NCBI GenBank assembly: GCA_964385465.1
Contig: CAYLPJ010000003.1
Location: 148,626-212,625, forward strand
DNA: 64,000 nucleotides
DNA from: an uncultured Planctomycetaceae bacterium
Lineage (GTDB): Bacteria > Planctomycetota > Phycisphaerae > SM23-33
Direction: 5' to 3'
Part shown: positions 15,035 through 58,900 of the stretch, one piece after another
Layout: each line of letters opens with the position of its first letter
Numbering within the stretch: the stretch's first letter is position 1
Program-made: the position numbers and the translations under genes
The notes under the pieces: model-generated
What the model was told of the DNA's origin: nothing
The model's input: only the letters and a program-made list of their open reading frames with translations
Database searches by the model: none

Positions 15035-15053
15035 GTGTCTTCCTTTCCGCGTC

Positions 15054-17732: not shown

Positions 17733-17772
17733 GCGCGGTCCTTTGTGGCGTCGGGGTCTGTGGCGGCTGCGG

Positions 17773-19179: not shown

Positions 19180-19595
19180 GGCTCTCCCGTGTGCGAATAC
19201 AGTATTTCCGCCGTGTCGGCCGGCGTGGGCCCACCGGCCGTGTCGCGGTATTGTAGCGCGGCAAGACGCCGGCGGACCGGTGGGAATTCTGCGCGCCCCG
19301 GTCAAGGGCGTGTCGGGCAATCCCCCGTACTCTCAAGGGGAACACCCCGTAGCCGATTGGGCAGGCCGGCGGACAGACGGTCCCCGCGTCTTCTCGTTAC
19401 AATCGCGGACAGTTCGGCTTGGAGCGCAAAGCGTGCTGGTTGGAGGCTCGCCCGAAAAGCCCTTCTATCGAGAAGAGATGTTCCCTCGTCGGAGGAAGTC
19501 TCCGCAGGGCGGCGTTCGTCAAGCATCTCGGCGGAGACGAGTCGTTCCGGACGGCCCGCCCTTCCAGGTTGCCGTCCGGTCGGCCGGGGCCGACA

Positions 19596-19943: not shown

Positions 19944-22900
19944 ATGGATACGTCGAGCAGCCCGTCTTCGCCCGCTTCGCCCGACGGCTCTCCCGATTCC
20001 GTAGTCCAGGTGGTCACGGTCCCGACCGGAGGCAACCTGCCGTCGATCGAGCCCCTCGAGCCGAGACTCCTGCTGTCGGTCGGGGACGTCACGCTGATGC
20101 AGCAGATGGTCGAGACGCTCGACGCGGCCGGAGAGCACGCCGACCGGCTGCGCTCGGACTTCCTCCGCGGCGCCGATCCGGTGGTCACGTCCGAGACGCT
20201 GCCCGGCACAAACGCCACGCTCGACGAGCTGACGGGGCTGTCGGACTACATGAACGTGGGGACGTACGTGCGGCACTACGTGCACCCGGTGGCTCATCCC
20301 GACGAGGACCTGCCCGGCGGCGACACGCTGCCCGTCGGCCCCGAGGAAGACCCGAGCATCGAGGGCCTGGCCGACTTTCTCGAGGCCAACTGGTTCGGCT
20401 CGCTGTTCGGCGGCGCCCTGGCCGGGACCGAGCTGGACGTCTCCTCCACCACATCCGACCCCGTCACCGACGCGACCATCAGCTTCGCCACCGACCCCGG
20501 CGGGGAGACTTTCACCGCCAGCGTGCCGATCGGCATCAGCGAGGACGTCGCGGGGATCAGCCCGGCCTTCACCGACGTACTGGCTACGTTCACCGTCGAG
20601 TTCGCCTTCTCGTTGACCGTGGACTGGGCCGACGCCGAGCCGGAGTTCTCCTACTCCGTCGACACGCTCGCCGTCGACTTCTTCGCCGTCGATGCCACGC
20701 CGGTAGTCCCCTTCCGGGTCGGGGACCTCGCCGGTTCGGCCGGGCACCCCCAGGAGATCCCGGGCCTGATTACAGCCGGCGTCTACGTGGACGCGCCGCT
20801 GGACACGGTGGCCGGGGAATTCGTTGCCGACTTCGACCCCACCGGCGACCCGGTCAGCTCGATCAGCATGGACTTGCCTGTCCACGCCGTCCTGGCCGGG
20901 CAGGACGTCACGCAAGGCGCCGACGCGCGGGTCATGCTCCAGGGGGACTACTTCGTCGACCAGGGGCGAGGCACCACGCCGGCGACGTTCACCACCCAGA
21001 ACATGGAGAATGTCTCGGACTTCTCCGACGTCACGCTCGACGGGCTCCGCCAGACGCTGGAGTCCCTCCGCGACGACTGGCTTGCCGGCGTGACCTCGAC
21101 GGACGCCTTCAACGTCGAGATCCCCTTCCTGGACTCGACGCTCGCGCAGACCGTCGACTTCGGCACGGCGTTCGACGCCGCCGTGCTGGGGGAGCTCGAC
21201 TTCGACTCGCTCGAAACGCTCCAGGACTTCGAGGCCGAGGCCAGCCGCCTCGGCCTTTTTGCTGACGGGGAATCGCTGAGCTACGATCCCGCCACGCAGA
21301 CGGTCACGCTGCCGCTGGACTTCGCCGTGGACCTCCACGAGCTGGACCTTCGCGGGCTGGACGAACTGGGGCTGACCGACGCCGAGACGCTCGTCGCCGA
21401 GGGGCTCATCCAGATCGACGACCTCGTCGACCCCGACGACCTCCTCGACGAGGGCACGCTGACGCTCAGCGAGCTGATCGACGTCGGCGTGCTGTCGTCG
21501 GCGGACGTGGCCGACTGGGAGGGCATGGACCTCGACGCCGTCGCCGCGGCGGGGCTGATCGGCCCGCGCGGTCTCGACCAGGCCGGGCTCACCGGTCCGG
21601 ACGTGGACCTCGACGAGCTGATGGTCGCCGAGCTGGTCACGCTGGCCGACCTCGTCGAGGCCGACTACGTTACGATCGGCTCGATCGCCTCGCAGCTCGG
21701 GTTCATCAAGGAGGCGAACCTGCTGGCCTCCAACCTGGCCGACTTCGGCTTCGACCTGCTGAGCTTGAGCACCACCACCGACATCGTCGAGGTCGAGGAC
21801 GTCCTCGGCAGCGGCCTGACCGACCTGGAGGAGCTCTTCGACGAGGCCCTGCTCGGTCTCGGCGACCTGGCCGTGGAATCGCTGCCCGTCGATGAGGTCA
21901 TCGCCGCCGGCGTCGCGTCCCTGCACGACCTCGTCGACCAGGGGCTGCTCGTCGCCGACGACCTGCTCGACTCCGTCGTCTTGGCCGTCACCGACATCGT
22001 CGATCAGACCACCGTCACGCTGGTGGACCTCTTCGATCACTCGCTGGTGGGCATCGAGGATTTCGCCTCCGACACCGCCGTGGACCTCGTCGATGTTCTC
22101 GACGAGGGCCTGACCACGCTCCGCAGGCTCGTGGATACCGGGCTGGTCGTCGTGGACAGCTTCCCCGACTTGGACCTCGATCCGGCCGACCTGCTGAACG
22201 AAGGGCTTGTCACGCAGTTCCAGCTCGATTTCAACGAGCTGGTCGAGTCCGGAACGGTCTCGCTCCACCGGCTGGTCAACGAAGAGATCGTCCCGCTGCT
22301 GGACCTCGTGGACGCCGGGCTCGTCGTGGCCGGAGACATCGCGGCGGCGACCGCCTCGCTGTCGGACATCCTGGCCGAGAACCTGTTCGCTGCCCGCGAC
22401 CTGCTGGTCGCCGAGCTGGTGGACGCCGCCGCCCTGGTCCGCGACACGCTGGACGTCCACGATCTCCTGGACAGCGGGGCCGCCCAGTTGGCCGAGCTCG
22501 TCAACGCCGGATTGATCGACGCGTCGGAGTTCCTCGCCGACCAGCTCGACATCCGCGAGCTGATCGGCACGCCGCTGGCGGACCTAGGCGACCTTGCGCG
22601 GGAGAACCTGCTCGAACCGGCGGACGTCGTGCTGGACGCGTGGAAGGAGTCGGAGATCGCCTCCAAGGCCTCCGACCTGCTCTCGGACATCCAGACCAAC
22701 GGGCTGGTCGGGCCCGGGGCGATCATCGACCTAGACCAGCTCGTCACCAACAGCCCCATCCAGCTTGAGCACCTGGTCTACTTCCAGTTGATCTCCCACG
22801 CCGATCTACCGGACCTCGGCACGGTGCCCCGCGGGGACCTGCTGGACGCCGGCATCATCGACGGCAGCATGCTCGAGCGCAACGGGCCCGCCGAGGTCGT

Positions 22901-25900
22901 GGACGCCGGCCTGCTGACGCTCGGCGACCTGGTGGACCTTTCCGAACTCGAACGGGGCGACCTCGCCGACCTGGCGCCGGTGGACCTGGACCTGTTCGGC
23001 TTCGACGCCGCCACCATCGAGGACCTGGACACCGGCGGATTCATCGATCACAGCGACGCCGTATCGATCACCGACCTGGCCGCCCACACGTCGCTGACGA
23101 TCCAGCGGCTGCGCCGCCTGGGGCTGCTTACCGACGGCGACCTCTCCGACGACCTCGGCAACGTGCTGCTGGACGACGTGCTCGTCCAGGGCTTCGTCGA
23201 CCGCGACGACCTGCTGGCCTCCGGCGTCGTCGAGAATGCCAAGCTCGACCCCTACATCACGCAGGATGCGCAGGGCAGGGACGTCGTGCCCGTCGTGACC
23301 CTCACCAGCGTCGGCCTGGCGACCCTGGCCGAGCTCGCCGAGGCCGGGCTTCTGGACCTGACCGACCTGGACGCCACGCTGCTGGGCCTGACGACGGTCG
23401 GCGAGCACGACGTGCTGGCCTCGGGGCTGGTCTCCCCGCGGGCGCTGGACGACAACGGTCTGCTCCAGACCGCTGGCGGGCCCAACGACCGCTCCGTCAA
23501 CGTCGAGGACCTCCTGAAGCTCGAACTGGTCTCCCTGGCAGAGGCCTTCGAGGCCGGGTGGGTCCACATCGCCCACGTGCCCGGGGTCGACATTGCCCTG
23601 GACGGGCTGCTGGCCTCGGACGTCGTCGGCGAGAACGCCCTGGCCGACGAGGGGCTGACCGACGCCGACGTGCCGATCGAGGCCCTCGTCTCGGCCGGGC
23701 TCGCCGACGCCGAGAGCCTCGTGGTCGCCGGGCTGATCCGCCAGAGCGAGCTGTGGGACGCCAGCGCCGTTTCCCTCCGGCGGCTGATCGACGCCGGCCT
23801 GGTGGATACCTCGGACCTCGCCTCCGGCGGCGTGGTGGACCTGGAGGACCTGCTCGAAGCCAACGTCTTGGACCAGAAGTACGTCGACGAGAACGACCTG
23901 GCCGAGACCGTCGCCGGCGAGGAAGACCACATCCTGCTGGAGACCCTCCTGGCCGACGGGAACCTGACCTTCGAGAACCTGGTCACCAGCGGGGCCATCA
24001 CGAGGGACGACTTCGTCAACAAGGCCTTCAACCAGTTCGCACTCGAGGCAACGCTCCTGGAAGGCGAGCTGCTGTTCGACGCCGGCGAGTTCGATGACGT
24101 GGTTCACTTCGGCACGGTCCCGCTGGACACCCTGCTGGACTCGATCCTCTTCGTCACCACGCTGACCGACTACATCGGCCTGGAGTTTGTCGACCATTTC
24201 GACTTCAACAACGTCTCGCTGACCACCGCGAACATCGAGGCGGAGTTCGGCGTGGACGTCGACGCCGCCTTCGAGCCGACCGTCGCCCTGTACGACCTCA
24301 TCGACGAGGACATCCCCGGCGTCTCGCTGACCACACTGGTCATGGCCGACTTCGTCGCCCGCTCCGACCTGATCGACGAGTCCATGCCGCTGGACATCGT
24401 CGAGCTCGAGGCCTCGCCGCTGTTCGAGGAGGGCGACCTGAACAACTTCATCAGCAGGTTCGACGTCTACCTCTACGACGTGATGGAGGACCACTTCGTC
24501 GGCGACCTCGTCCGCGCAGGCCTGGTGGATGCCAACGACCTGATCATCCGCAACTTCGCGGACCTGGCCGACTTCGTCGAAGAAAGGCTGCTCGGCAAGC
24601 AGGACTTCCAGGACGTGGACATCCCCGCCGCGGACCTGACCTCCGCCGGTGTGGCGACCTCGGTGGCCCTGACCGACCGCGGGCTGATCGATGCCGGCAA
24701 CGTCTCGCTGCTGAGCCTGGTCAACACCGACCTGACCGAACTGCCCATCCTCATCGAGCAGGGACTGGTGGACTCCGATGACCTCGCCGCGCACGTCCTC
24801 GCCCGCGAGACCGAGACCGTCCTCAACAGCAACGTCATCGACCAGGCCCTGCTCGACGCCGCCGGCGTGATCACCGGCGCCGAGAACGATCAGGTCACTC
24901 TCAACGGGCCGACCAGCCTGCTCAGCGAGGACCTCGCGGGCATCTACCACCTGGCCCGGACCGGCGTGATCGCCCCGTCCTACCTCGACCCGGCCGCGAC
25001 GGTCGACGCCGACGATCTGCTCTCCACCACGCTGGTCTCCGATGGCGAGCTCTTCGACGCCGGTACGGTGGAACTGCTCACGCCGGGCGAGCTGTTCGCC
25101 GCCGGGCTGGTCTCCCCGGGGGACCTGGGCGTCACCGAGATCAGCCTCAACGCCCTCGACCGGGTCAATGCGATGGACCTGGACGACCTCAGCGACCCCG
25201 ATCTGCTGATTGCCCTGGGCCTGGCGACGGCCGATCGGATCGACGGCGTCGGCAGCGTGGACGTCGCCGAGATCACCGCCGCCGGGCTGACCACCGAGGC
25301 GGACCTGCTGGCTGCCGGGCTGCTCGGTACGCACGTGGACCTGGCCGCCCTGCTCGATTCCGGCCTCGTCACGGCCGAGCAGTTGCTCGACGAGGGGCTC
25401 GACGACCGTAGCGGGCGTGTGCCCCTGGAAGACCTGGTCGACTCCCCCCTGACGACGCTGACCGACCTCCAGACCGCCGGCCTCGTGCCCGCGAGCATTC
25501 CCATCGCCGACCTGGTCGACTCCGGCGAGGTCGCCCTGGCGGACCTGCTGGAAGACGGCGTGGACAAGGCCGCCCTGGTCGCCTCGGCGCTGGGCATCAG
25601 CGAGCAGGACCTCGTCGACGCCGGGCTGTTCGACCGCGGCGTGAACATCGCCGACCTGGTGGCGACGGACCTGGCTACCGCGGAGGACTTGTCGCTCTTC
25701 GGGCTGCTTCCCACGGTGGTCGATCCGGAGGATATGATCCTGTTGAACCTGGTCACCGGCGAGCAGCTCGTCGACGCCGGCCTGATCTCTCAGGCGATCC
25801 TGGACACCGAGGCCTTCGTCCCGGTGCTGCTGACCGACGTGCTCGAGGCGCTGCGGGACGGCGGCGACCCGAACTCCCACCTTGTCACCGTCGCCGACCT

Positions 25901-28900
25901 GGCGATGAACGGCTTCTTCACCGACGACATCGCGCGCGGCGACCTGACCGGCTCGGGCGTGGTCACCGGGGGTGAGCTGGACGACGCCGGCCTGACGGGC
26001 GACCCGATCAATCCCCGCGACCTGCTGATCGCCGGGCTGGTTGCCGGCACCGAGCTCGCCGCCGCCGGGCTGCTGACGCTGACGGTCTCCAAGGACGACA
26101 TCACGAGCCCGGGCTTCGCCGCCGTCGCCGGGGAGGCGGTCACCGAGGCCGACCTCGTGGACGCCGACCTCCTTCGCGGGCGGGTCGATCCGGACGGTAT
26201 CGTCGCCGCCGGCCTGGCCACGCAGGGCCAGCTCGACAGCGAGGGCCTGGCCGCCGAGCCGATCATCCCCCGCGCGGACCTCGATGACCTGCCGCGCGTG
26301 GACGTCGACGCCCTGGACCTCGCCCCCGTGCCGCTGGCCAAGCTGCTGGCCGAGGGCATCGTCGACGAGAACGACCACGTGGACCTCGATGCCGTGCTCG
26401 ACACCGTGCCGACCGGCGAGAACGCCCCGCTGCTCAGCGCCGCCGACCTGGCCCGGCTGGGGCTGATCACGCCCCGCGACCTCAACGGCCACGATCCAAA
26501 CGTCCTGCTGCTCCACGATCAGCCGATCGACCTGAGCGGCGACTACGGCCTGGACCTCGTCGGCCTGGTGACCGACGCAACCGCCGACCTGCGGGCGACG
26601 GCGAGCGGGTCGTTCGACCTGGTCGCCGACGCCGACGGGCCCGCCGGCGGCGGGACGCTCACGTGGACCGTGGACGACGCCGAGCTGACCGCCGAGGTCG
26701 GTTTCGACGTCCGCGACATCGACGCGACCGGGCGGCTGGGCTTCATCGGGGTGACGCTGGCCGACGTCGCCGGCCTCGAGAGCCTGATCCACCTGGACCT
26801 GACGCAGACGGGCGTACTGGACGCCGACGGCAGCCTCGGGACGGACACGGACCGCTCGTTCGCCGCCGGCGAGGTCGCCGCCGGCGATCACGACGACAAA
26901 TGGGTCACCGACACCACCGGCACGGCGGAGGCGACGCTGCGCGGGGTCAAGGTCAACACCGGCCTCGGCGGCGTCCCGGTCGCCCACGGCGCGGAGATCG
27001 TGCTGAGCGTCGAGGACCTGACGCGCGACAAGGACCATGCCGACTACCTCTCCCTGGAGCTGCGCAACCTGCCGGGCATCTTCTCCATCCACGAGCTGTT
27101 GCGGCTGGAGGACCTGCTGACGACGCTGCTCCGCGCCCGCGACTACGTCCGCACGGCCATGGACCAGGTTCCGTTCTTCGTCACCGACCCGGAGTCGCCG
27201 GTCTACGAGTTGCTGGACAGCGTGAAGCTGCCGATTCTCGATCGCTCGCCGGTCGAGCTGCTGACGGTGATCGGGGACATCGACGAGGCGATCACCGACG
27301 TCGAGCGGTTCCTCCGCGATCCCGAGAACGACATCCAGCGGCTCGTCGGCGTGTTGATGAACGCCCTGGGCCTGGACATCGAGGCCGACAGCGACGTCTT
27401 CAGCGTGGCCATGGAGGGCAACGTGCTGAAGGCGAGCCTGAGCATCGACCAGGACGTCAGCGAGACCGTGCCCTTCGATTTCGACTTCTCGGCCCTCGCC
27501 GACGCGTTCGGCGGCAGCCTGCCGAGCGAACTGGACGGGCTGGGTGAGCTGGTCAGCCTCGACGCCGAGGGCGAACTGACGTTCACCGGCTTCGCCGAGC
27601 TGGACGTCCAGGCCGGCGTGGACCTCGGCCCTCGCGCCGAGGACCAGCCGGTGGACAAGTTCCTCTACGACTGGGACGACGGCCTCCAGGCAGGCACGCG
27701 CGTGGCCGCGGGGTTCAAGGTGCTCGGGCAGAACCTCGACCTGGGCTTCGAGGTTTTCGACTCCATCGGCCTGTCCACCTTCAACGGCGCCCAATTCGAC
27801 CTCGACGAGAGCGGGTCGCTCGACGCGACCACCTACAACGCCGACGTGACCATCGACGCCGACGCCGACGTGACCACCAACCCCGAGCTCGGCGACCCGA
27901 ACGACCGCTCGGACTACGTGGCCGTCACGTTCGAGCTGGACCAGCAGCCGGGCACCGGCGTGGACGACGACGGGCTGTATCGCTTCGACGAGACGCTGCT
28001 GGGCGATAACGTGGTCTTCGGCGGCGTCGACGGCGGGTTCGAGGTGCTCCTGCCGCTTGAGATGGACATCTTCGGCGCGACGACGCAGTTCGAGGGCCTG
28101 GGCACCTGGCCGCTGTGGATCCGCACGAACCCGGTCTACGAAAGCGGAACGAATGCGGGGCTGGAGCAGGTCTTCCGCCACGTCTTCAACACCAGCCCGG
28201 GCCCCGACGAGCCCGTGCTCATCGACGCGCCGGACATCACCGGCCAGCTCGGCAACCTGGCCGACAGCGTCATCCGCACGCTGCTGGAGGAGCTCGCCGA
28301 CCTGGTCGGGGACCTCAAGCAGGAGCTGCTCGACGCCGGCCTGCTGGACCTCGAGATCCCTGGCACGAGCACGACGGTGGACGACCTCTTCGGGGCCGGC
28401 AACGACAACGGCCTGCCCGGCGTGCCCACCGCGACGGGAGCCGAGGCGCTGCTGGATATCGACACGTACGTCTTCGAGTACCTCGATACGGTGCAGTGGA
28501 CGGGCTCCAATTCGGTGCAGGACGGCTCGGTCACGCCGGGGGACATCTGGAACGGCCTGGCGACGTTCCTGACCAACCACTGGGTCCCGACCCTGCCGGG
28601 GATCGGCGTGGGCGTCGGCGGGAACTTCATCACGGCCAACGTCTCGGGCGACCAGTTGAGCCTCGACGTCGACGGCAGCTACAGCTTCAACGAGACGGTG
28701 GACGCCGACTTCGGCGAGCACCTCGGCGGGCTGAGCCTGACGATGAATACGCTTGGGATGGACCTCGCCCTGTCGACGCTTCTGAAGTTCGGGTTCGACG
28801 TGGACCTGGGGACCAACGACGTGGAGTTCGACTTCGAGGAGTTCGGTTTCGACGCGTCGTTCGACACCACCACGCTGGACCTCGGGCTGACCTACGAGGG

Positions 28901-34900: not shown

Positions 34901-37900
34901 CTACTCCCTGGGCGATGAGTTCGTGGAGAAGGACGAACTGACCTTCGGCGCCGAGATCGGGCTGGAGGCGGCGTTGTGGTTGGCGCTGATCGAGGCGGGC
35001 CTCGGCGGCGTGCTGGGCTTCACCACCGGCATCGACCTCCAGGACGTCAACGACGACGGCAAGATCCACTTCTCCGAACTCGACACGATGTGGAACTACA
35101 CCGGCAACGACGCGCCGGGCGGCCTGCTGAACCTCTTCAACCTCCACGGTGAGGCCTACGCCGAGGCGTATGTGTTCGTGGACGTCGGCATCTCCATCCC
35201 GTTCGTCGGCAAGATCATGAAGCGGGTCGTCGACTGGACCATCGTCGACATCACCCTCGCCGAGTGGGAGTACAACGCGCCCAAGGTCCAGCCCGTGCTG
35301 GCCAGTACCGACGGCGACACCCTCGTCCTGCACACCGGCAAGCGAGCCGGCGACCGCGAGTACCTCGACACCGAGGACGGCGGGGAGCACTTCACCCTCA
35401 CCGGCGACAGCTCGGCCATCGAGGTCGCCTACGGCGAGTGGTCCTTCACCTACGACGACACCACCTACACCAAGGTCATCGCGGACGGCGGCGCCGGCGA
35501 GGATGTCTTCGACGCCTCCGGGCTGACCGGGGTGGACGTCGAGTTCGACGGCGGCGAGGGAGACGACACGCTCACCGCCGGGACGGGCGCGGCCGTGCTG
35601 ATCGGCGGGCCCGGCGACGACCGCCTCCAGGCCGGTTCGGCGACGGGGACGATCACGCTGGACGGCGGCGAGGGCGACGATTTCCTGATCGGCGGCCCGG
35701 GCGTCAACGACCTGACCGGCGGGCCGGGCAACGACCGGCTCACCGGCGGCTCGGACGCCGACACGCTCGCCGGTGGGACCGGCAAGGACACCCTCAGCGG
35801 CGCCGCGGGGGCCGAAACGTACATCTTCGAGGCCGACTTCGGGCCCGACCGCTGGTCCGACTCCGCCGACGCCAGCGTCCTCGACCTCAGCGCCACCACC
35901 GAGAACCTTACCGTCGACATCAGCGCCACCGGAATCAAGATCGCCAGCGACGACGCCGAACTCCGCTTCGGCCGAAGCGAGATCAGCCAGATCATCCTCG
36001 GCACCGGAGACGACGTGCTCCGCATCCGCGACTGGCCGGCCGGAACGCTCCAGATCGAGGACACCGGCGGCTCGGCCACCTACAACTTCGAGTTGGGGCT
36101 CCAGAGCTCCAACAAGGCCGACGGCATCATCGACATCGTCGACAACGATGACGACCACGACGAGATCATCCTCGACAACCTTGTGGGCATGGACCCCGAC
36201 GACAACGTCTTCGACGCGCTGACGATCAACGACCACGAGCTCGTCAACGGCCGGGAGATTATCCGCTACACCGACGGCGTCGAGCAGATCAGCCTGCCGG
36301 TGGTCGAATCGGAGATCGACGACACGGGCGAGACGACGTTCCACATGCGGGACCTGGAGATCGTCTCGACGAACCCCGGCGGGGCGGTGCTGGGCGAGAC
36401 GGACCTGATCGTCGACGCCCGCAACCTGACGGTCTCGACGGACCTCGACGGCGACGGCTTCGTGTTCACCGTCGAGGAGGACGTGGTGCTGGACGGCTCG
36501 GTGCACGCCACCGGGGACATGGACATCGCCTCCGACACGATCGGCAGCAGCGCGGGCGTCGGGCGGGTGGATCACGCAATTGACGCCCACGACCTCGACT
36601 GGCACATCCGCGTCAGCGACGTTATTGCCAACGCCCGCATCAACGCGATCTTCGACGGCAAGCTGGATATTTACGCCGCCAACACGACCCCGGCGGACAT
36701 CATCCTCAACGTGGACATCACGTCCTCCTCGGGCGACACCACCGACGGCCAGGGCGGCGGGACCATGCGCCTGGTCGCCGAGGGCGTGCTGGATATGCAC
36801 AACGACATGCAGTTCCTCGGCGCCGGCGCGCACCTGATCCTCGCGGCCGACAACATCAACAACCACTTCTACGGCGGCTCGAACAAGATCCGCACGACGG
36901 TGGCGGGCCTGACGGTGCTCACGCGGGACGAGGGCGTGGTCTCCGGCAGCGAGATCGTCGTCGAGGAGACCGACAGCCTGGTCGTCCACGGGCTGGACCT
37001 CTCGGACGTCCCCTCGCAGAACCCCGTGGGGCTCAGCAGCGCCCACGGCATCATTCACGTGACGCTGGCGGGCACCGACGCGCGGCTGACCCTCGACACC
37101 GGCAGCATCATCACGCGCGACCCGGGCATGGACATCACGCTGTTCGCCGACGACTTCGACTTCATCCCCTCGCCGCTGGTTCGCGACACCACCACCGACC
37201 GGCCCCGCGGCGGCGTGATCGGCACGGGGCAGCTCACGCTGCGGGCGCCGAACGCCTCGACGTTCATCATGGGCACCGCGGCCGAGCACGAGCTGGGCAA
37301 GGACTGGACGGACCTCGCCGCGGACACGCCGGGCTACACGGCGTTCCCCGAGCACGTGGGCGGCAACTTCAGCGGCCCCGAGGGCGACAAGAGCTACGAC
37401 GAGGACGGGTCGATTTTCCAGGACACGGTGCACCTGTCCACGCGGGACCTGTCGGCGCTGGCGGACGGCTTCACGCTGATCACGATCGGCGACGACGTCG
37501 GCGACGCCAACCCGACGGCGGAGATGCGGTTCGGCGACGCGATGGACGCCGCGATCGTCAAGCACGACGGCTCGCCGCGCGACCGGGACAGCTCCTTCCG
37601 GGACGACGTGATCCTCAACGCCGCGAAGGTGTTCGTCGAGGGCGAGGTCGAGGCGCTCGCGCCGGGCGGCGACCCGCCGATCACGCTGGAGATGAACACC
37701 GACCGCCTCCAGATCAAGGACAAGAACATCCACAACCCGCTGGGCGGGACCGATTCGGGCATCACCGGCGACCTGCTGGAGCTCGACGGCATCCGCGACC
37801 GCATGATCGTCGACGGCTGGGTGCGGACCTGGGGCGACATCCGCGTGAACATCCAGGGCGACGGCGAGTCGTACGTCTCGCCGATGATGACCGACGTCAC

Positions 37901-46900: not shown

Positions 46901-49900
46901 CATCCTCACCGACGCGCTCGTCAACGCCCGGGACGGCGTCGAGGTCAGCGGGGAGAACGTCTGGGCGCTGGACGAGAGCGTCACGATCACCCGGGCGGAC
47001 CACTCCCGCACGGCGTTGACGGCGACCGGCACGCTGCCGGACGGTGGGACGATCCACGTCGCCCGCAGCCAGATCTACTTCTTCCGCGCGTTGGTGGCCT
47101 CGGCGGGCGAGGTGGAGCTGACGGGCAAGGAAATCAGCGTGTACGGCACGGTGGAGGTCGAGGGCAGCGAGCGCAACGGCGACGGCGACCCGGCGCGGGC
47201 ACGTCTCCAGGCCGACCGCAACGTGGTCGTCCGCGGCGAGGTGCTCAGCGGGGCCGACATCGACATCGACGCCGGGCTGGTCGATCCGACCGGCTGCGTG
47301 GTGGTCTCCGCCGAGGGCAGGCTTGCGGCGGGCTATGGCACGGAGGCGGTCGGCGACATCATGCTTGACGCCGCCGGCGAGGTGACGCTGCTGAGCTACG
47401 ACGACGACGCCAACGACGACCTCCAGTTCGCCGCGCCGTACGTCACCTACGAGCCGGTGTTCGTGGACGTGGTGACCGGCTTCCGGCGCGTCGAGGACGG
47501 CTTCATCCAGCGCCCGGTCGTGCACTACATCCCGACGATCACGACCGAGCAGACCGGCTTCATCGACGTGAAGGTCGGCAGCGAGTTCGGCAGCGCCGAG
47601 GTCCGGCTGTTCCAGGACGGCTACTGGTCGGACACGGCCCCGGCGGACGAGCGGTTCCGCGAGTACTTCATTCCGGGCGTGGACTACGAGATCGACGACC
47701 TCGACTGGCCCGGCAAGGCCCCGGACGAGAACCCGGGCCTGTATCGCAAGGTGGCCCCCGGCGAGTACGAGCTGATGGACACCTCGACGTTTGACCTGAT
47801 CGGCGAGGTCACGAACTACGGCGGCCCGCCGATCGACCCGGGCACGACGTTCGCCCAGGGCGTGACGATCGACGGGGCGGTCAACGCCGTCCGCCAGGAC
47901 CGCACGCCCACCCTCGGCGGGCTCTTCTCGCCGGGCAGCACCACGGTCGGCGGCGGGGAGCTGCCTCTGCTGACCGGCCAGTTTGCCGGCGAGGAGTCGG
48001 TGAGCTACGCCGACGTGCTGACCACCATGGAGAGCGAGGTCTACCTGGTGATCGACGATGTCTTCGTCCAGCAGACCTACAAGCCGTGGGACGAGCTGAC
48101 CGCCACCGAGAAGGCCAACGCCATCCTGGATCACCTCGGCTACCGCAAGCTGTTCGACGTGCGGTTCCTCGAAGAATTCGAGAAGACCGTCTATATCACC
48201 AGCCCGAACGACCGGTTCGAACTGGAGCGCGACTCGGCCATCACGGACCGTTTCGACGGCAAGACGGTCAACGAGATGGTCGAGGAAGAGAACGCCACGC
48301 GGGTCAAGGGCGTCAACTTGAGCTTCGCCGACGGCGAGTCCGTGGTCGCCCTCGACGAGCTGGCGGCGCTGAATGCCGGCAACGGTGAGTTCGCATTCAC
48401 CGAGGCCTCGCCGGCCTTGGAAGGCGTGACCTTCCAGGACAGCGGTGGCGAGAAGAAGTTCGTCCCCGGCGTGGTCGTCGACGGCGTCTTCCGCGTCACG
48501 CCCTCCGACAACCTGGCTATCCGGCCGGACTGGTCCGTCACCACCGACAGCTACACGATCACCAAGAAGTACTTCGACTTCTGGTTCCCCGAGTTCATCC
48601 CCTTCGACCCGGCCGTGCATTACGACCCCGGCGAGCACGCCAGCGTCGAGGAAGCGGCCTACCGCCATTGGACGCCACCGTCGGAGATGGTGGACGAGGT
48701 GCTGGACGGCGTGCCCCCGGAGGACCACGAAGAGGCGCTGGAGGAGTTCAGCGAGCAGTTCTTCATCGCCGGGCGGGACTACGACGAGGAATACGCCAAC
48801 CCGGCCAAGGAGGACAGCGGCGACTACATTGCCAGCTTCTTCGAGCGGGAGGACACGATCCTCGCCGACGGCGACTGGGAGAAGGTGTACGGGACCGAGA
48901 CGTCGCTGGGGCGGATCAACCGCAACTTCGAGGGCATCCCGACGGTGCACCTGTGGGAGACGGACCTGACCGATCAGGACCGCGAGGTCTTCGAATACAC
49001 GCTGGACGACGGCACGGAAATCTTCCTGCGGGCGCCCGAGCAGTGGTGGAGCGAGTACGAGGTCACCGCCCTGGGCAACGACCGCGTGGACCCCGACGAC
49101 AAGAAGCTCCAGTATGTCGGCAACGTCGAGACGTACGACGAGGAGGTCGGGCAGATCCGCGAGGTCGCCCAACTGGAGTACATCCAGGAGTGGTCCTCGG
49201 CCGTGCCGCATAAGCCGAGCAACCCCGAGGAAGGCGACCTGTGGGTCGTGGATGACTACGACGACAGCCCGGGACGCTGGGTGGTCTACCTCCGCGACGA
49301 CCCGCACGAGGTCTGGCCCGACGGCGATCCGACGGCCTACGAGCAGTACAGCATCAACGACGGGCGGTCGGTCAGCGAGTTCGACCCGCCGTATGCCGAC
49401 ACCGTGTTCACCGGCTTCTACGGCCTGCTGGCCGACGCGGCGTTCGCGCCGCTGGCCGCCGGCGGGCTCGAGCTGACCGAGGCCTTCCTGCCGGAAGGCA
49501 CGGTCGCCAGCCTGGTCACCTACGACAACTCGGTGAAGCTCGATTACGACTTCGAGGACTGGGACACCGGCGAGCCGGGCACGGTGGACGACCAGGGCAG
49601 CGTCTCGGGCTTCACGGGCGACAACTGGGCCGAGGGCACGGACGCCAACGGGCGGCTCGTCTACGGGCAGATCAACGCCGGTGACGAGGAGGACGGCCTG
49701 GCCGTCGCGCAGACCAACATCAACCTCGAGCAGTTGAACGACGATCCGCGCACCGAGCACGACGTCGCCGAGATGCGCCGCTACGAGGGGCGCGACTACT
49801 ACCTGACCATCGGCCACTACGACTGGTACGAGGCCGGCAACGTGCGAAGCTGGCCGTGGCATCTGGCGGTCGTCAACGACGCCGCCGAGAACGCCCTTAT

Positions 49901-52900
49901 CCGGGACATGATCTCCGCCGCCGACACGTCCGCCTGGCTGGGCGGGTACGACCTCAACGGCGTCAGCCACAACTCATGGTCCATGGAGTGGGTCCACGGC
50001 TCGGGGATCAGCAACGGCTCGGGCTACAGCAACTTCCACCCCTCCGAGCCGAACAACGAGGGCCCGTACAACGACGAAGACCACCTCCAGATGTGGACCA
50101 GCGGCTACTGGAACGACCTCAACGCGGTCGAGGAGCTGCGGGCCGTGCTGGAACGCGAGCCGGACTGGGGCGACCCGTTCGACGGCGACGAGACCCAGCA
50201 CGACTTCATCTACAAGATGACCACCGACTGGCGGGCTATCGAGGACGTCCGCTCGGACATCACCTACCGCGCGTTCACCGAGGCCCACGACATCATCGAC
50301 AAGCGCCCGCGGTACGAGACCATCGAGTCCGAGGTCCCCGTCATCAAGATGGAGCAGGTGACCAACTGGACCTACGAACCGGTCGTCGAGCAGGTCCTCG
50401 ATTTCGCCAGCAGCGCCGTGCCCGCCGACGGGCCGGGAAGCCTGGCGATCTTCGACCGCCAGGCCCTCTCGGCCACGGGCGACATCACCATCAACGCCGG
50501 CTCCGACGTGCTGGTCCGCTCCAGCGTGGCCGCCGGCGAGACCGACGGGGCCATCTCCGTCAACTCCAGCGGCGGGGCGGTCACGGTCGGCACGGACATG
50601 CCCGCCGAGCCGAAGCTGTACGACATGATCCACCTGACCGCCGGAGAGGCGATCGACATCGACGCCGCGGGCGGCGCGGTCGAGATCGGCGCCACGGCCG
50701 AACTGCGGACCGAAACCGACGCCCCGGCGCCGCCGAACGGCAACAGCGGCGGCGAGCCGGTGCAGGATATCTCCGTGGACGCCTCCGATGCCGTCCGCAT
50801 CGACGGACAGGTCGCCGCTCGCGACAACGTCGCCGTCACCGCCGCGGCCGACGTGACCCTCACCAGCAGCCTCCAGGCCGTCAACCTCATCGCCGCCGAG
50901 GCCGGCAACGGCGGCGGGGCCGGCACGGTCTTCGTCCACGACCCCGACGCGCCGCTCGACGGCGAGTTCGACGAGGACGACCAGAGGCCGGCGATCGGCG
51001 GCTTCCTCACCGTCACCGGCACCGACGGCGAGATCCGCCTGACGGCCGGCGCCGCAGGTGGGGACATCTCCCTCATCGACGCCGAGTTGGAGGCCGACCT
51101 GATCACGCTGTCGGCCCCGGCAGGCGAAATCCTCCAGCCCGCGGCCGTCACGCCTCCGGGCGATGGGGACACGCCGACCACCGGCGGGCAGCTCCGGGCC
51201 GTGACACTCGACGCCGACGCCGGCGCGGGCATCACGCTGGAGAACCTCCACGTCGGCGAGGTCACCGCGGTCGTCACCGGACCCGGCGACGTCGTGCTGC
51301 ACGACACGGATCTGGCCGGCGTGGCCGGGGGCGCCGATCCCGCGACGGCCGGGCTGGACCTGGTCAACGTCCGCACGGCCGACGGGTCGATCGACGTGAC
51401 GGCCCTGGGCAGCGGCCTGGTGGCCACGGACGTCCGCAGCCTCGGCGGCGGGGACGAGGACGACGTGACGCTCAACGCCGAGATCGGCGCCGGGGGCTCG
51501 ACATCGCTGACGGTGCACCACGTCGAGGCTGCCGGGGATGCAGACGTCTTCCTGAACGTGCAGGGCCAGCTGATCCAGCCGGACGGCTCGGTGAGCGCCG
51601 ACGAGGTGACGGTCCAGGCCAACGGCGCGACGGAGATCCACACGCAGGCGTCGTCGATCGACATCGACCTGGCCGCGCCGGGCAGCCTGGTGATCGTCGG
51701 CGATTCGCCGACGCTGACGCTGGCGAACGTCCGCGTGCTCAACGGCGACTTGACGGTCATCAACGCCGGCGACATCGACGCGCAGAACGTCGAGCTGGTC
51801 ACCGATTGGAACACCTCGAAGGTCCCGCCGGAGGCGAACGTCATCCGCCTGGAGACCACCGAGGGCAGCGGCGGGACGATCACCGTCGGCAGCATCGTCG
51901 GGGGCACCTACGCCGCCAGCGAGGCCGAGGCCGACGCCATCCGCCTGGACATGCTCAACTCGATCCTGCGGAAGATCGATCCCGCCGGCATCCCCGCCGA
52001 GTTCCTCACCGACGGGACGGACGGGGAGGGCGACCCGATCCAGTTCGTCGAGCTGACGCAGCCCGAGGCGGACGACCTGGCGGCCATCGTCACCGACGAC
52101 TTCGCCGCCGATGGCGAGCTCATGGCCGCCGCCACGGCCTTTACGATGTACAGCCGTGTGCTCGACGTCCTGGGCGTGGCCTACGAGGGCACGTACGAGG
52201 AGACCGACGAGCAGGCCGTCGAGGACGAGGCGCGGTCGCTGTTTACGCTCAGCCGCGGGCTCAGCTCGGCCGGGCGCGTGGAACTGTACTCCGACGGCGC
52301 CATTACCAGCCCCGTGCCGCTGGCCCCGCTGGGTGCCGGGCCGATGCCGCCGTCCAACGGCGTGGGCATCGTGGCCGACACGCTCGTCGCAGTGGCCGGG
52401 TCCGACATCACCGGCCTGACCACGGCGGTCAATCGGATGGAGGAGGTCTGCTCGATCGGCGGGTCGGCCTCGGACGTCCGCGACGTCGACGGCATCGGCG
52501 AGCTCTCGCCCGGGGTGAAGGTCGACCTGGCCGAGGCCCTGGCCGGATCGCTGGCGATCACGGCACAGAACGCGCTGATCGTCACCTCGGTACGGACGCC
52601 GGCGTCCGACGCGCAGTTGTCGCTGACCAGCGAGCTCGGCGGGCTGTTCGTCGAGCGCAACGGCGGGGGCAACGCTTTGGAGTCCGGCGGCGGGATCAAG
52701 CTGGAGACCCTTGCGGCCGACCGGGACCTGACGGTCACCGGCCACGTCCAGGCCGGCGGCAAGCTGGAGTTGGCCACGCGGGGCACCGTCAGCTCGCTGG
52801 GCCAGGGCGTGGACCTCGACGTCGGCGACCTGTCGGTGGACTCCGACAGCTCGGTCGTGCTGTCCGGCGAGTTCAATACCCTGGGCGAGGTGGACGTCGT

Positions 52901-55900
52901 CAGCGACGGGAACATCGCCCTCAGCCAACTGGATGAGGCCTTCGAGGGCTTCCGCGTTTCCAACCAGCGGTTCTCGCTCCAGCAGCGAATGCTCCAGACG
53001 CTGGGCGACAACCTCGATGCACAGATTGACGCGCTCTCGACATACCAGGCCCTGATGGCCGCCGCGGCCAGCAGGGAGGCCGGCCAGGGCGACGTGCTGA
53101 GCACGCTCGAGGCCCAGCAGCTCCAGCACCTCGTGCGGATGCCGCTGGAGCTCCAGCATCAGCAGCTTCAGACGCAGCTCGCGGACCTCGGCAGCCTGCT
53201 GGAGGTCCAGGACCAGTTGCCGGATACGCTGGGCGAGATGGAGGGCTACGATCAGATCGTTCAGCAGCGCGACCAGGTGACCGACCAGCTTCAGAGCGCT
53301 CAGAGCACCCTTGGGCAGGTCCGGACGGACCTGCTGGAGATCATCGGCGATACCGACGACCTCGTCGCCGACCTGGAGGACGTGCAGACAACGATCGCCG
53401 ACCGTCAGGCCTATCGCGACGGGCTCGGCGGCGTGCTGAGCGACATCCAGGCGGAGATCAACAGCCGCCCGGACTACACCCCGCCGGCCCTGAACGGCGG
53501 CGAGGAAGGCGCGCCCGACCTCAGCCTCGACGCGCTGAACAGCGTGGACCTCGACGAGCTCAGCGACGAGCAACTCGGGCGGCTCCACCACGACGTCCAG
53601 GGCGTCGCCGACGAGGTGGACGGCGAGCTCCAGGACCTCGGCCAGCAGGTCGAGACGCTCCAGGACCAGATCCACGCCAACCAGGGCGACCTGGCGTTCG
53701 TCCGCGAGGACCTCTCGGCCGTGCGGGACACGGTGCAGGGCCTCGGCGGTCAGCTCGACGCCCTGGACGCTCAGATCGCCGCACACCAGGCCGCCCTGGC
53801 CGAGATCGAGACGATCATCGGCCTCAGCGATCCGGCGGCCATGGACCCGGCTGTTCGCGACCTGGACGACAACGCGGACGTGCTCAGCGACACGATCAAC
53901 AGCGGCGTCGACGCGCTGCGCGACCAGCGCCTGCTCGAGACCGTCAACGCCAGCCTGGCGGACGTCAACAGCCAGATTGCCCGCGTCAATGATGCGATCG
54001 ACGCCGTGGCCCCGCTGACGGACACGACCGACTTCGGCGTGCTGGACTCGGGTATCCGCGGGCTGACGGCCTACCAGGACGTGCTCAGCGGCGCCATCCT
54101 GGACGGCATCGCCGGCCTGCCGGACCGGACGTACTCCGAGCTTCAGGCGCAGGTCGCGGACGTCATGGCGGATATCCAGCAGGTCGACCAGGCCCTCGCG
54201 GCCCTGGAAGCCATCCAGGGCGCGTCGGGCTTCGCCGTTGTCGACCGCAACGTCCGCAGCCTCGCGAGCGTCCAGGACCTGCTGACGCCGACGTACCAGC
54301 AGATCGTCTCCGACGTGACCGCGCTGCCGACGTACTCCAACCTGCTCGAAGAGATCGGCACGATGCAGCAGCAGTTGGAGCAGGAGCGGCCACTTGACGA
54401 GGTCCAGGCCGATCTCCAGCAGGTGGGCAAGCAGCTCGACACCCTCGCTGCGGAGATCGCCCCGATCGAGCTCCAGTTGATCAAGCTCGCCTATCGCTAC
54501 CTCAGCCACCAGAAGCGCGACATCCTGCCGAGGGTGATGGCGTGGCACGACGAGATCGGCAACCGCCTGGGCGGGCGCGTCGGCAGCCCCGAAGACGTGG
54601 AGCCCGATCCCGAGGCGTTCCCCATCGACTGGGACTTCTACGATCTCGGCCGGATCCACGGCTTCGATGCCCATCTCGACCAGATGGACGACGAGCAGTT
54701 CGGCAAGTTCCTCGACGGGCTGGAGCCCGCGGAGCTGGCGGCTGTCCAGGACGTGCTGGCCACCCAGGCGAGCAAGTCCGAGGGCCTGGACAAGGAGCTT
54801 CAGGACCTCGACGCCGCCGGCGGCGCCGACCCGTTGGACCCCGAGCTGCCCCAGAACCGGTTCGACCTGCTGCCGCAGTGGGAGCAGTTGGACAAGCAGC
54901 GCGACGATCTCCTGCTCCAGCAGGCCGACCTCCAGGCAGAACACGACCGTATCGTCGCATTGCAGGACCAGTTGGATGCCCTGCAAGGCCGGCGTGACGA
55001 CCTCGAGGGCGCCCTCATCAGCGCCCAGGAGTTCGCCTTCAGCGAGGCCGACAACCTCCAGGGCATCCGCGGAGGTCTCCAGGAGCAGCTCAACGGTCTG
55101 AACACCGACCGGCGGAATCACGAGGGCCAGCTCAGCGACCTCCAGGGCGACCTGTCCCCCGAGTTGAGCCGTCTCTACGCCGAACGCGAGGACCTCACCG
55201 GCCAGCGGAACACGCTGGAAGCCGAGCAGGGAACCGTCACCGGCTACATCTTCGGGGTCGTGGAGTTCCTGCCCGGCGAGCAGAGCCGCCTGAACGAGGC
55301 CCTCGGCGGCATCCAGCAGCAGCGCGAGGCGGTCAACACGCAGTACCAGGACGCCTTGGCCGAAGAGAGCACGTTGGAGCAGCAGGAGACGCAACTGGTC
55401 GCCGAGCGGGACACGCTCCAGACGCAGGTCACGCAGATCGAGGAGGATATCTCCGGCTACCAAACCACGCTGGAGGACCTGGACGACCAGGAGGCCGCGC
55501 TTCAGACCGAGCTGGACGGCATCCTCCAGACGAAGCAGACCGAGCGCGTCGGCCTGCGGGACGACCTGGTCGGGGTCCAGCAGCTCCAGGCCGACTACGC
55601 TCTCGTCGCCCAGGATTTCCAGTCGCTCCAGCACGGGCTGAACCTCGGCGCGATGGCCGGGGAGTTCCGCGGCAACGTCCTCGATGACATGCAGCGGATG
55701 AGCCGGCTCCGCGCGGATCTCGAGCAGATGCGCCAGACGCAGGAGAGGCTGGAGTACGGGCTGCGGCGGACGCAGATGGGCGGCGACGGGCTGACCAGCA
55801 TCAGCATTCGCGCCCAGGGCTTCAGCGAGCAACTGCTCTCGGCCGGCGTGGAGCTGTCCCTGGCTCAGCCCGGGGACGACTCGGAGGACCCCGGCGACAA

Positions 55901-58900
55901 GGTTGCCCAGGACGACTTCTCCGGCTGGTACCTCTACACGCATTCGGACACCGAGCAGACGCACTACCGCGACGCTCGGGGGACCGAGAACGACATCGAG
56001 GACGACGTCTTCCGCGTCCGCGAGTTCAGCCCGTTCTACGTCGACGAGCAGGCCTACTACCGGCGGCTGGACGACGTCGACGCCACGCCGGGCGAGCTCG
56101 GCGACGACGAGGAGACGTTCTACGCCTGGGACAGCGCCGTGCTGGAGACGTTCTACGTCTTCGACGGCACGTACTCGGTGCAGAAGTTCGCCGGTACGAC
56201 CAGCGAGGAGCGCACCGAGGTCCGCCCCGACACCGGCGAGGAATTCACCTTCACCATCGACAGCCCGCTCTACGACGTGCACGACTACCGTGCCCACTTC
56301 CTCGCGGACTCGCCCGATACCGAGTTTGCCGACGCCGAGCTGTTCGTCACCAGCGACGACGAGACCGGCGAGCACGTGCGGGCCTTCCAGGACATCCTCG
56401 ACGACCTGTCGGCCGAGCTGGGCGAGGAAGGCCGGCTCATCGTCCTCTACCCGGGCCAGACGCTCGATGACCTGGATGTCGGCGAGGTCACCGAGGATGA
56501 CATCCTGGTGACCTTCCTGGACTTCACGCCCATCTACCGGCAGGTCTCCAACAGCGAGATCGCCTTCGACGACCCGCAGTCCCACGGCGAGCAGGTGTTC
56601 GAAACGCTGCCTTCGCTGCTGACGGAAGTCTACCGCGGCGGCGTCGAGCTGCTGCCTGTCGAGGCCCCCGAGGCCGGCAACGTCTTCACCGGCGGGCTGC
56701 GGGCGTCCGCATCGGAGCTGATCGAGCTGCTGGCGACCGACCGGCTGACCGGGCTGGAGACCAACGCGCTGCTGTCGGCGCCGACGGTGCGGCTGGCCAG
56801 CGGCGACGTCCTGGAACTCGGCGGGCTCATCCTCGCCAGCGAGTCCGTCCAGGTCGATGCCGGCGGCGGGCTCGTGTTGTCCGAGGACGCCCGCGTCAAG
56901 GCCGGCGCCGTGAACGTCAACAGCGCCTTCGGCGACGTCGTCGGGCGCCAGGGCAGCGTCATCGAGGCCGACACGGTCGATGTCTTCGGCGCCGGGATGG
57001 TGGACATCGTCACCGACGCCCGCGCCGTGGCCGCGTCGGCCGGCCTGTCCGGCGACGTGGTCGTCACCAACATCGGCGACGATCCGGTGACCGTGGAAAC
57101 CCAGACCGACGGCGGGACGGTGGATGTGCGGTCCGATGGCACGATCCAGGCGGGCAACGTCGCCGGCGGCGACGTCTCCCTGATGGCCGGCGGCCGCGGC
57201 GACGTGCTCATCGGGCAGGTCGACGCCACCGGCAACGTCACGCTCGACGCCGCACGCGGTATCGGGTCGTACACGCCGCCGCCTCCCAACGGGCCGCTCG
57301 TGCCCCTCATGGCCGAGCCGCGGCTCAACGTCGGCGGCGACCTGAACGTCATCGCCGGGCTCGGCGCGGACCTGCCGGGCGGCACGGTCGGCGGCGAGAG
57401 CTCCGTTACCGACAACGTCAGCCTGGTGATCGACTCGCTCGACGACCTCCCGGCCACGGGGCCGGCCCACATCGCCGTTGACGGCGACGTGGTGATCGAG
57501 ATCGCGCTGACGCTCCACTACGACCTCACCATCGAGGCCGACAACATCATCTTCTCCGGCGCCGGGGCGATCCTGAATCCCGGCGGCGAGACCAGCCTCA
57601 AGGCCGACGGCGCGGTCATGCTCAACGGCATGCCCTCGCAGGACAACGACGGCGGGAAGGAGGGCACGGTCGTCCTGTCCGGCGAGAGAGTCTCCATCGA
57701 GGCGGCCGAAGTCCTCGGCGGCGGCGAGCGGCTCATCCGCGCCGACCTGCTCCGCGTCGTCACCGAGACGGACCTGGCCCTGATGACCGACGTGGACACC
57801 CTCGAGGCGATCATCACCGGCCGCGGGGACCTTCGCGTCGAGGCGGGCGGCTCGATCGAGCTGCGGGACGTGCAGGTGCACGACGGCAGCGTGATCGTTG
57901 AGGCCCCCGGGGACATCGTGGCCACCGGCGTGGTGTTCGGGACGGACCGTTACGCCAACCGCCTGAGCCTCCAGGCCGGCGGGGAGCTGACGCTGGGCAA
58001 CGTGGTCGTCGGGCGACTGATGGGCACCGAGCTCGAGACCGGGGCGGGGCTGACCAACGCCGGCGGCGTGCTGGACGTGGAGGTCACGCAGGACGACGAC
58101 AGCGTCGTCGAGGACCGGCCCGGCAGCTTCACGGCCCGGGTGACTGACCCGACGCACACCTACGAGCCGGGCGAAACGGTCGAGATGGGGATCGAGTTCG
58201 GCGACGGCTCCCAGCAGATGCTGGACGTGGACGTCGCCGGTCCCCGGGTCGAGGTCATCGGCCCGCCGAGCGAACGGTTCGGCGGCGTGCAGGACTACAG
58301 CGGCATGGGTGAGGCCGTCGTGCTGGCCGACGTCAACGCCGACGGCCTCGCCGACCTGATCCTCGGCGAGGGCCGCCACGACCTGCCCGACGCCGAGGAC
58401 ATCGGCCGAGTGCAGGTCCGCCTCGGCTCGCCCGACGGCCTCGTCGACGACCCGCTGACGCTCTGGGGCAGCGAAAGCGACGACGAGTTCGGCCAAAGCA
58501 TCGCCGGCGGCGACGTCAACGGCGACGGCGTCGACGACATCATCGTCAACGCTCCCGGCTACACGAGCCTGCGGACCACCACCACCGTCCAGCCGGACGG
58601 CACGGTGACGGTCGAGGAGTTCGAGGTCGACGGCGGGTTGTTCGTCTACTACGGCTCGGACGCCGGCCTGAGCGTGGAGCCGTCCTTCGTGCAGCTCCCG
58701 GCCATCCAGAGCATCGCCCCGGCCGGGGACGTCAATGGCGACGGCATCGACGACATCCTGGCCATGGACCCCTCGGCGGAGGTCGACCGGGTCATCGACG
58801 GAGAGCTGGAGACGCTCCCGTTCGCCGGGCGCGTGACGCTGCACCTCGGCTCGGCCGAGGGCCCGGCCGCCGAGCCGGTCTGGAGCTACGAAGGCAGCGA

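Follow-up and report, generated by a model that had tools for sequence, protein, structure and literature searches.

The giant open reading frame and its surroundings

The stretch of DNA analysed here (the window, 64,000 nucleotides, 70% GC) contains an open reading frame of 13,705 codons on the forward strand (positions 19752 to 60869 in the list of open reading frames), which hosts a glutamine- and leucine-rich helical module (positions 52941 to 55781, forward strand, residues 11064 to 12010). Codon-position GC is 0.70/0.42/0.94 over the whole frame and 0.77/0.35/0.92 within the module, a pattern typical of coding sequence at 70% GC, and the module is genuine coding sequence that lies in frame inside this single open reading frame. 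A further open reading frame of 2,956 codons on the opposite strand (positions 49974 to 58844) was rejected as a gene, because its codon-position GC is inverted, as expected of a GC3 artefact.

The encoded protein is strongly acidic (D+E 18.6%, K+R 4.5%), is nearly devoid of cysteine and for most of its length has no match to any known family. Searches against Pfam returned RTX above threshold, FG-GAP, and weak, sub-threshold matches to dockerin, Big_5 and C-lectin. On account of the RTX and FG-GAP matches and the sub-threshold dockerin and Big_5 matches, together with similarity to integrin alpha-5 and the weak C-lectin match, the protein is probably extracellular. Its N-terminal motif LEPRLLLS resembles what we take to be a feature of planctomycete secreted proteins. 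The neighboring genes include an RND efflux pair, an AcrB-type transporter and a membrane-fusion protein, which suggests a cell with two membranes (diderm); a gene for PDH E1 is another neighbor of the giant frame. We consider the product to be probably a planctomycete surface protein.

The module lies between segments of different character. On its N-terminal side, residues ~10200 to 11063 (positions 50349 to 52940, forward strand) form a repetitive segment rich in glycine, valine, threonine and serine, which is beta-solenoid-like as judged from its sequence pattern only. This segment carries a strand-like period-2 hydrophobic signal and is common to the homologues P0001 to P0007 (the homologues are described below); a search for a sequence relative of it in the PDB found none. 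Directly after the module comes a non-helical domain recognized by its sequence conservation (positions 55839 to 56741, forward strand), with the motif VAQD.FSG.YLY...YYRD. It is common to P0001, P0002, P0004, P0005, P0017 and P0018 and matches no Pfam family above threshold. Further downstream, residues ~12830 to 13200 (positions 58239 to 59351, forward strand) correspond to an FG-GAP or integrin-alpha-like beta-propeller region (Pfam FG-GAP, E=1.4e-32; integrin alpha-5, E=4.7e-8). An initial annotation of this DNA had described the helical region as followed by a propeller; this is loosely true, since FG-GAP matches do lie downstream, but they begin ~820 residues past the module.

Heptad periodicity and segmentation of the module

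The module is the only part of the giant protein that is both rich in glutamine and leucine and periodic in heptads. Glutamine makes up 11.9% of its residues, compared with ~2.5% elsewhere in the protein, and leucine 14.3%; aspartate (11.5%) outnumbers glutamate (7.5%), hydrophobic residues (LIVMFYW) amount to ~30%, and the net charge is about -120. We used a re-implementation of COILS for coiled-coil prediction, with the MTIDK matrix and parameters entered by hand and a 28-residue window, on which the GCN4 control scored P=1.0. P exceeded 0.5 for 47% of module residues and for ~0% of the other 12,758 residues of the protein. When the module was shuffled, either globally or within 28-residue blocks, the predicted coiled coil fell to 2%, with a maximum of 11% in 200 trials. 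As the signal is lost on shuffling, it is positional and not compositional.

The same contrast is seen in the periodicity. The spacing of LIVMF residues peaks at 3.5 residues with a power of 0.77, against 0.20 +/- 0.03 in shuffled sequences (~17 standard deviations), and along the whole protein this 3.5-residue periodicity is restricted to residues 11001 to 12000. When residues are assigned to heptad positions, a is occupied by L31/I9/V5 and d by L23/V16/I6, while e and g are dominated by glutamine and not by Glu/Lys pairs. The module thus has canonical coiled-coil heptad character above composition-matched chance.

It could be argued that the coiled-coil call is a by-product of structureless, low-complexity or disordered sequence rich in glutamine, leucine and aspartate, given the unusual composition (Q 12%) and the fact that word-index homology searches were swamped by low-complexity words. 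We regard this explanation as very improbable, and a compositional artefact as essentially excluded. Composition-preserving shuffles remove almost all of the signal, even when they are confined to 28-residue blocks, and the periodicity lies far outside the shuffled range; in addition, hydrophobic and proline positions are conserved among homologues at ~30% identity, and the AlphaFold2 (AF2) model described below has a mean pLDDT of 78.5.

The coiled-coil calls are not continuous. They are split into 10 segments of 29 to 81 residues, the longest unbroken heptad register between breaks is ~81 residues (~12 nm), and the module holds 26 prolines and ~71 glycines. The initial annotation had proposed an uninterrupted coiled coil of about 950 residues, giving a rod of more than 100 nm. 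What stands of this proposal is a very large, heptad-rich, coiled-coil-type alpha-helical region within a giant and probably extracellular protein; its continuity does not, as the register is not maintained over the whole region. The description "uninterrupted" is contradicted by the prolines, the glycines, the 10 separate segments and the 22 helices and non-helical stretches of the AF2 model, and a single rod of more than 100 nm finds no support in a register that is kept for no more than ~81 residues and in breaks of which many are conserved prolines. The module is better described as ~20 helices split by conserved breaks.

Homologues and internal anatomy

HMMER, run exhaustively on 1.84 billion cluster representatives, identified 18 distant homologues (E-values from 2e-58 to 3e-4, ~30% identity). 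Each of them is a singleton from a short metagenomic contig and represents part of a larger (giant) gene. Word-index homology searches with the module, with a 6-sequence profile and with the adjacent domain found no relative; since HMMER recovered 18, these negative results reflect a problem of sensitivity. No relative of the module was found in a search of species-representative genomes; in the same genomes the neighboring PDH E1 gene had matches in many phyla, none above 63% identity, so that the source organism is evidently absent from that collection. Exact-sequence look-ups with two proteins of the window gave no source contig. Those homologues that carry a name are annotated as "hypothetical" or "VCBS repeat-containing" and are mostly from Planctomycetota; their sources are a Thermoguttaceae MAG, a Planctomycetota MAG and a Methanomethylicaceae bin, the last of which probably results from mis-binning. 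The giant-protein family with this module is most likely from Planctomycetota.

The longer homologue fragments keep a common order of parts: a lectin-like part, a repetitive segment rich in glycine, valine and threonine, the helical module, the domain with the VAQD.FSG.YLY...YYRD motif and, continuing downstream, a repetitive segment, the FG-GAP propeller and then C-terminal parts of Ig-like, PKD, RTX or dockerin type. P0001, P0002, P0004 and P0005 have the same domain order as the protein in the window, and their alignments with it span the two halves of the module. The module is rich in glutamine and leucine in 17 of the 18 homologues, and coiled-coil calls in them are essentially confined to it. 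The alignments show conservation of the h..h...h hydrophobic spacing and of prolines that sit at the ends of helices, residues 11131, 11157, 11244, 11513, 11526 and 11547 among them. The conservation of these prolines, and of the LP.E motifs described below, indicates that the breaks belong to the design of the family and have not arisen by decay.

Known families account for little of this sequence. Pfam searches with the module at E<=5 returned only generic coiled-coil families, all sub-threshold, and phmmer against the PDB gave nothing significant. A profile search against the PDB gave as its best match a coiled-coil stretch of 8qox_B (an entry with three chains, E=1.6e-5), with weaker matches to spike HR1, sigma-1 and M protein. 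Homology to 8qox_B was rejected, as the match reflects similarity of heptads and composition (bias 14 of 26 bits). There is good support for regarding the module as conserved, segmented and helical, of coiled-coil type, and as part of a rare and unannotated giant-protein family.

We distinguish an N-terminal arm, a variable middle and a C-terminal arm within the module. The N-terminal arm (module positions 1 to 297; positions 52941 to 53831, forward strand) is predicted by AF2 as six helices of 26 to 47 residues (9-55, 66-91, 103-135, 139-175, 209-247 and 249-293), and varies little in length among full-length homologues (294 to 307 residues). It is broken by a Pro/Gly-rich loop at module positions 176 to 208 (positions 53466 to 53564, forward strand), which begins SRPDYTPPALNGGEEGAP, is modelled as non-helical with a pLDDT of ~60, and contains two residues, R176 and P181, that are invariant in the 6-sequence alignment A1.

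The middle begins with three diverged, 66-residue tandem helical repeats (residues 11358 to 11555; positions 53823 to 54416, forward strand), recognized from pairwise repeat scores and sharing the motif D..(L/V)R.L..Y..(L/V)LS. Their pairwise alignments score z=9.5 and 8.5 against shuffles, and AF2 predicts each as one long and two short helices; a DNA-level tandem repeat beneath them was sought and none was found. The number of copies varies among homologues, in which this segment measures 117 to 228 residues, and the helix that follows the repeats measures 17 to 64 residues. Next comes a largely non-helical, proline-rich insert of ~90 residues (residues 11611 to 11702; positions 54582 to 54857, forward strand), delimited from AF2 secondary structure, which is 54 to 101 residues long in the homologues and mostly negative by COILS, with one segment (residues 11660 to 11688) inside it. 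We consider this insert a candidate tip element.

In the C-terminal arm (residues 11703 to 12010; positions 54858 to 55781, forward strand) the heptads run furthest without a break, for 81, 52 and 40 residues, and the conserved helix-start motif LP.E occurs at P11803 and P11841. The last 170 residues of this arm are of constant length in four of six homologues; the first part of the C-terminal helices ranges from 92 to 194 residues. A blastp comparison of the region with the whole giant protein gave no off-diagonal match within the region, and so nothing suggests that the N-terminal helices and the C-terminal ones arose by duplication.

Predicted structure and possible folds

Structure prediction with AF2 agrees that the module is mostly helical, and its runs disagree on the C-terminal part. 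From the single sequence, the model is mostly helical with a pLDDT of 50 overall, and residues 11707 to 11990 form a two-helix hairpin (pLDDT 70 to 82) with its turn at residues 11837 to 11843. With the 19-sequence alignment A2, which is too shallow for covariation, mean pLDDT is 78.5 and pTM 0.37, and 82% of residues fall into 22 helices. In the 19-sequence model the six helices of the N-terminal third are followed by short helices in the repeats, a 63-residue helix, the insert, and two helices of 255 and 43 residues that make up the C-terminal arm; non-helical stretches fall at module positions 176 to 208, 548 to 583 and 626 to 639. The 255-residue helix (residues 11703 to 11957) takes the place of the hairpin, and its continuity is doubtful because it contains three prolines and 19 glycines.

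The AF2 model was compared with PDB structures using Foldseek, and the top matches were all intramolecular antiparallel arms: MukB (E=6e-7), condensin SMC, Smc5/6, JetC, the cohesin elbow and Rad50. Prefoldin-type hairpins were also among the best structural matches. TM-scores did not exceed 0.15, which is very low, as expected of long flexible rods. The idea that the module is an alpha-helical pore-forming or membrane-inserting toxin-like element of the ClyA, XaxB or YaxB type was rejected, its similarity to such proteins being no better than generic helical similarity. Antiparallel coiled coils in general match the module at least as well as these toxins do, the net charge of about -120 argues against such a role, and no Pfam match to such families was obtained, so that we give this reading hardly any weight and regard a pore-forming-toxin-like module as essentially excluded.

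The arrangement that we favor, with a probability that still falls a little short of even, is an intramolecular antiparallel stalk of ~40 nm that folds back on itself and carries the variable middle as an exposed tip projecting from the beta-rich fibre. Here ~20 amphipathic helices with heptad spacing (L/I/V at a and d, e and g rich in glutamine), parted by conserved Pro/Gly breaks, would be folded so that the N-terminal set of ~300 residues runs antiparallel to the C-terminal set of ~300 residues. The resulting two-stranded stalk would be ~40 nm long, with the variable middle (66-residue helical repeats and proline-rich insert) placed at its tip. The module would then be a semi-rigid stalk or side arm, from which a fast-evolving tip stands clear of the beta-rich fibre, and would be neither a single rod of more than 100 nm nor a zipper between chains.

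The pairing of the two arms is suggested by the structural neighbors of the model and by the symmetry of the module. The arms are of similar length: the N-terminal arm has 297 residues and the C-terminal arm 308 here and 304 to 310 in four of six sequences, the exceptions being P0001 (262 residues) and P0004 (386 residues). Stretches of low pLDDT are mirrored, at positions 48 to 75 from the start and 43 to 73 from the end, and the N-terminal loop at 176 to 208 mirrors the C-terminal LP.E breaks at distances of 169 and 207 residues from the end. The matched lengths, mirrored low-confidence stretches and mirrored breaks fit a fold-back of the N-terminal helices onto the C-terminal helices, and a middle of variable length is as expected of an exposed tip. 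We also count in its favor the hairpin that the single-sequence prediction draws in the C-terminal part.

Other evidence fits a parallel oligomer equally well, namely the model with a continuous C-terminal helix and the profile similarity to 8qox_B (trimeric coiled coils). The module may instead form a kinked, parallel, homo-oligomeric (dimeric or trimeric) coiled-coil rod, in which copies zip together in register, bundle fibres and space the beta-rich flanks by many tens of nm; this takes up the oligomerization suggested in the initial annotation and adds kinks to it. The strong canonical heptads with L/I/V at a and d fit such a rod, AF2 often draws oligomeric coiled coils as single long helices of the kind seen at residues 11703 to 11957, and the weaker profile matches to spike HR1, sigma-1 and M protein point the same way as 8qox_B. 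Variation in the copy number of the helical units, of 66 and ~38 residues, would also be easiest to accommodate in a linear rod. However, the 26 prolines, many of them conserved, and the non-helical inserts would repeatedly break its register; the e and g positions are glutamine or acidic and nearly lack basic partners, and stabilizing g-e' salt bridges are therefore not available; and the monomer model has its structural neighbors among intramolecular antiparallel coils. Taken together, we judge the parallel rod unlikely, at about half the weight given to the folded-back stalk.

The repeats of the middle part raise the further alternative of a linear, monomeric rod of small helical bundles, arranged one after another in a one-way chain like the beads of spectrin or Ebh, with two or three helices to each bundle, and serving as a flexible or extensible spacer of ~50 to 80 nm. 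Three 66-residue repeats, each of one long and two short helices and variable in number among homologues, are what such a rod would be built from. A hydrophobic content of ~30% (LIVMFYW), however, suits a narrow two-stranded seam better than the cores of bundles, blastp shows no repeat relationship between the long N- and C-terminal helices, and Pfam gives no spectrin, FIVAR or GA signal. We consider this rod a poor prospect, slightly less probable than the parallel one.

Comparison with the known systems helps to place the folded-back stalk. In SMC proteins, MukB and Rad50 the long arm is formed within one chain by two antiparallel helices, with discontinuities, and helical halves of similar length flank a middle domain; this is the topology proposed for the module. 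The module differs from them in its extracellular-type context and in lacking sequence similarity, so that the resemblance is one of shape only. A Pfam search for ABC-type ATPase heads, a hinge or a zinc hook found no SMC_N, hinge or AAA family above noise (AAA_13, E=3.4), and the flanks are beta-rich or FG-GAP. A more specific version of the proposal is that the module is an SMC-arm-like folded-back coil with ~300 residues per strand (~40 nm), a conserved "elbow" and a fast-varying tip, which forms a side arm flanked on both sides by beta-solenoid segments of the giant fibre; this we put forward more tentatively, as a possibility that we would sooner expect to fail than to hold. Tip domains presented on a stalk are known from dynein, with its microtubule-binding domain, from enterococcal PrgA and from streptococcal antigen I/II; none of these is related in sequence to the module, whose proposed tip would consist of the predicted repeats and the proline-rich insert.

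Classic examples of helical rods on bacterial surfaces are the stalks of trimeric autotransporters, the M proteins of streptococci and the rod of Ebh, built of helical bundles. The initial annotation therefore overstates the rarity of long coiled coils among secreted bacterial adhesins, as long helical stalks are well known in bacterial surface fibres, for example in UspA1 (PMC2396876). Trimeric autotransporters (YadA, UspA1, BadA) are secreted fibres in which long heptad coiled coils alternate with beta-rich segments, and the present protein probably resembles them in this. Its coil, however, makes up a single internal module in a chain of 13.7k residues, and no YadA-type beta-barrel anchor, stalk or neck motif was found by Pfam in the last 4,705 residues or in the module. 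Ebh, with its FIVAR-GA rods, is a giant bacterial surface protein whose rod consists of tandem short helical bundles, as in spectrin repeats, whereas the module has only three repeats and consists mostly of long, non-repetitive helices; FIVAR, GA and spectrin models of Pfam do not match it even at E<=5. Streptococcal M-like proteins are parallel dimeric coiled coils with a C-terminal LPXTG cell-wall anchor, whereas here no Gram-positive anchor family was found by Pfam in the C-terminal 4,705 residues.

Proteins of more than 10,000 residues with dockerin, RTX and cadherin-type domains are reported to be enriched in Planctomycetota and their relatives (bioRxiv 10.1101/2023.11.21.568195; PMC11573180), and a term search for "coiled" found it absent from the main text of both reports. 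The protein in the window resembles the giant proteins of the PVC group in that named homologues of its module come from Thermoguttaceae and Planctomycetota MAGs, and stands apart from them in that the module family comprises only 18 clusters among 1.84 billion representatives. The module family is new and unannotated, while the general kind of structure to which it belongs, a helical stalk in a surface fibre, is already known.

Giant proteins of more than 10,000 residues from Planctomycetota and related bacteria are almost wholly uncharacterized. With its clear boundaries, conserved breaks and variable middle, the module offers a tractable piece of such a protein, either as ~950 residues or as two arms of ~300 residues, and a specific structural hypothesis in the form of a choice between a fold-back stalk and a parallel rod. 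If the module is merely a segmented spacer, the finding is an ordinary one. If it does fold back, it would represent a new design among bacterial surface fibres and would help to annotate related "hypothetical" proteins from metagenomes. Should the reading as an SMC-arm-like side arm be true, bacterial fibres would have a means of presenting a binding tip that has not been described before, in a domain family that has so far gone unannotated.

Relatives of the Q/L-rich helical module

The coiled-coil-type helical module of the giant protein (residues 11064-12010, window positions 52941-55781) returned no relatives among the best 8,000 candidates of a word-indexed protein search, whether the module itself or its profile was used as the query, and the same type of search with the neighbouring non-repetitive domain also returned none. 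An exhaustive HMMER search, in contrast, recovered 18 relatives of the module, and negative results from indexed searches should therefore not be equated with absence for sequences of this kind.

Two of these homologues call for comment on their records. P0001 (3,731 residues) lies on the metagenomic contig L081 (1-15626, JGI metagenome 3300076001), where it is preceded by a gene fragment of 1,064 residues that stops 44 nt upstream of it in a different frame and is overlapped by an ORF starting at position 3168. P0001 and this fragment are probably parts of a single giant gene, broken either by a frameshift or by an assembly error. P0007 (MEM4406983.1) is a clear member of the bacterial giant-protein family to which the module belongs; its record gives as its origin a metagenome-assembled genome of a Candidatus Methanomethylicaceae archaeon, and the contig has probably been mis-binned.

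Genomic setting of the giant gene

Ordinary chromosomal genes occupy window positions 3263-19320: a sulfatase, a GNAT acetyltransferase, an RND efflux pair (an AcrB-type transporter and a membrane-fusion protein), an epimerase, and pyruvate dehydrogenase E1, E2 and E3, the last three transcribed divergently from the giant gene. The top genome matches of E1 share at most 63% identity with it and are spread over several phyla, which indicates that the set of species-representative genomes searched contains nothing closely related to the source lineage.

The module is also overlapped by a minus-strand ORF of 2,956 codons (window positions 49974-58844). We rejected it as a gene on account of its inverted codon-position GC content (0.92 at the first position and 0.77 at the third); the ORF is thus a side effect of the plus-strand gene's high GC3.

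Other regions of the giant protein

Near the N-terminus, a stretch of about 1,600 residues (~480-2100, window positions 21190-26050) is composed of 18-20% Leu and approximately 20% Asp plus Glu, with Leu autocorrelation maxima at lag 11 (0.20) and lag 5, as exemplified by the motif DLVDAGLVxxx. A Pfam scan of this stretch gave no match, and amphipathic-helix periodicity was absent from it. Judged from composition and periodicity, it looks like an unexplained acidic repeat region with an 11-residue period, possibly a new solenoid.

RTX calcium-binding nonapeptide repeats were identified by Pfam in the middle of the protein (residues ~5302-5330, window positions 35655-35741), scoring 34.5 bits against a threshold of 23. 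At the C-terminus, the strongly acidic composition gives way over the last ~200 residues (window positions ~60250-60866) to a basic one that is rich in Ala and Pro (K+R 13.7%, A 21.5%, P 10.2%), and this tail could have an anchoring or secretion-related role.

Upstream of the module, residues ~10037-10129 (window positions 49860-50138) gave a weak, below-threshold match to C-type lectins (E=0.005). Since an equivalent lectin-like 'W.D.' stretch is kept upstream of the module in the homologues P0002, P0003 and P0007, this segment may represent a genuine carbohydrate-binding domain within the cassette that they share.
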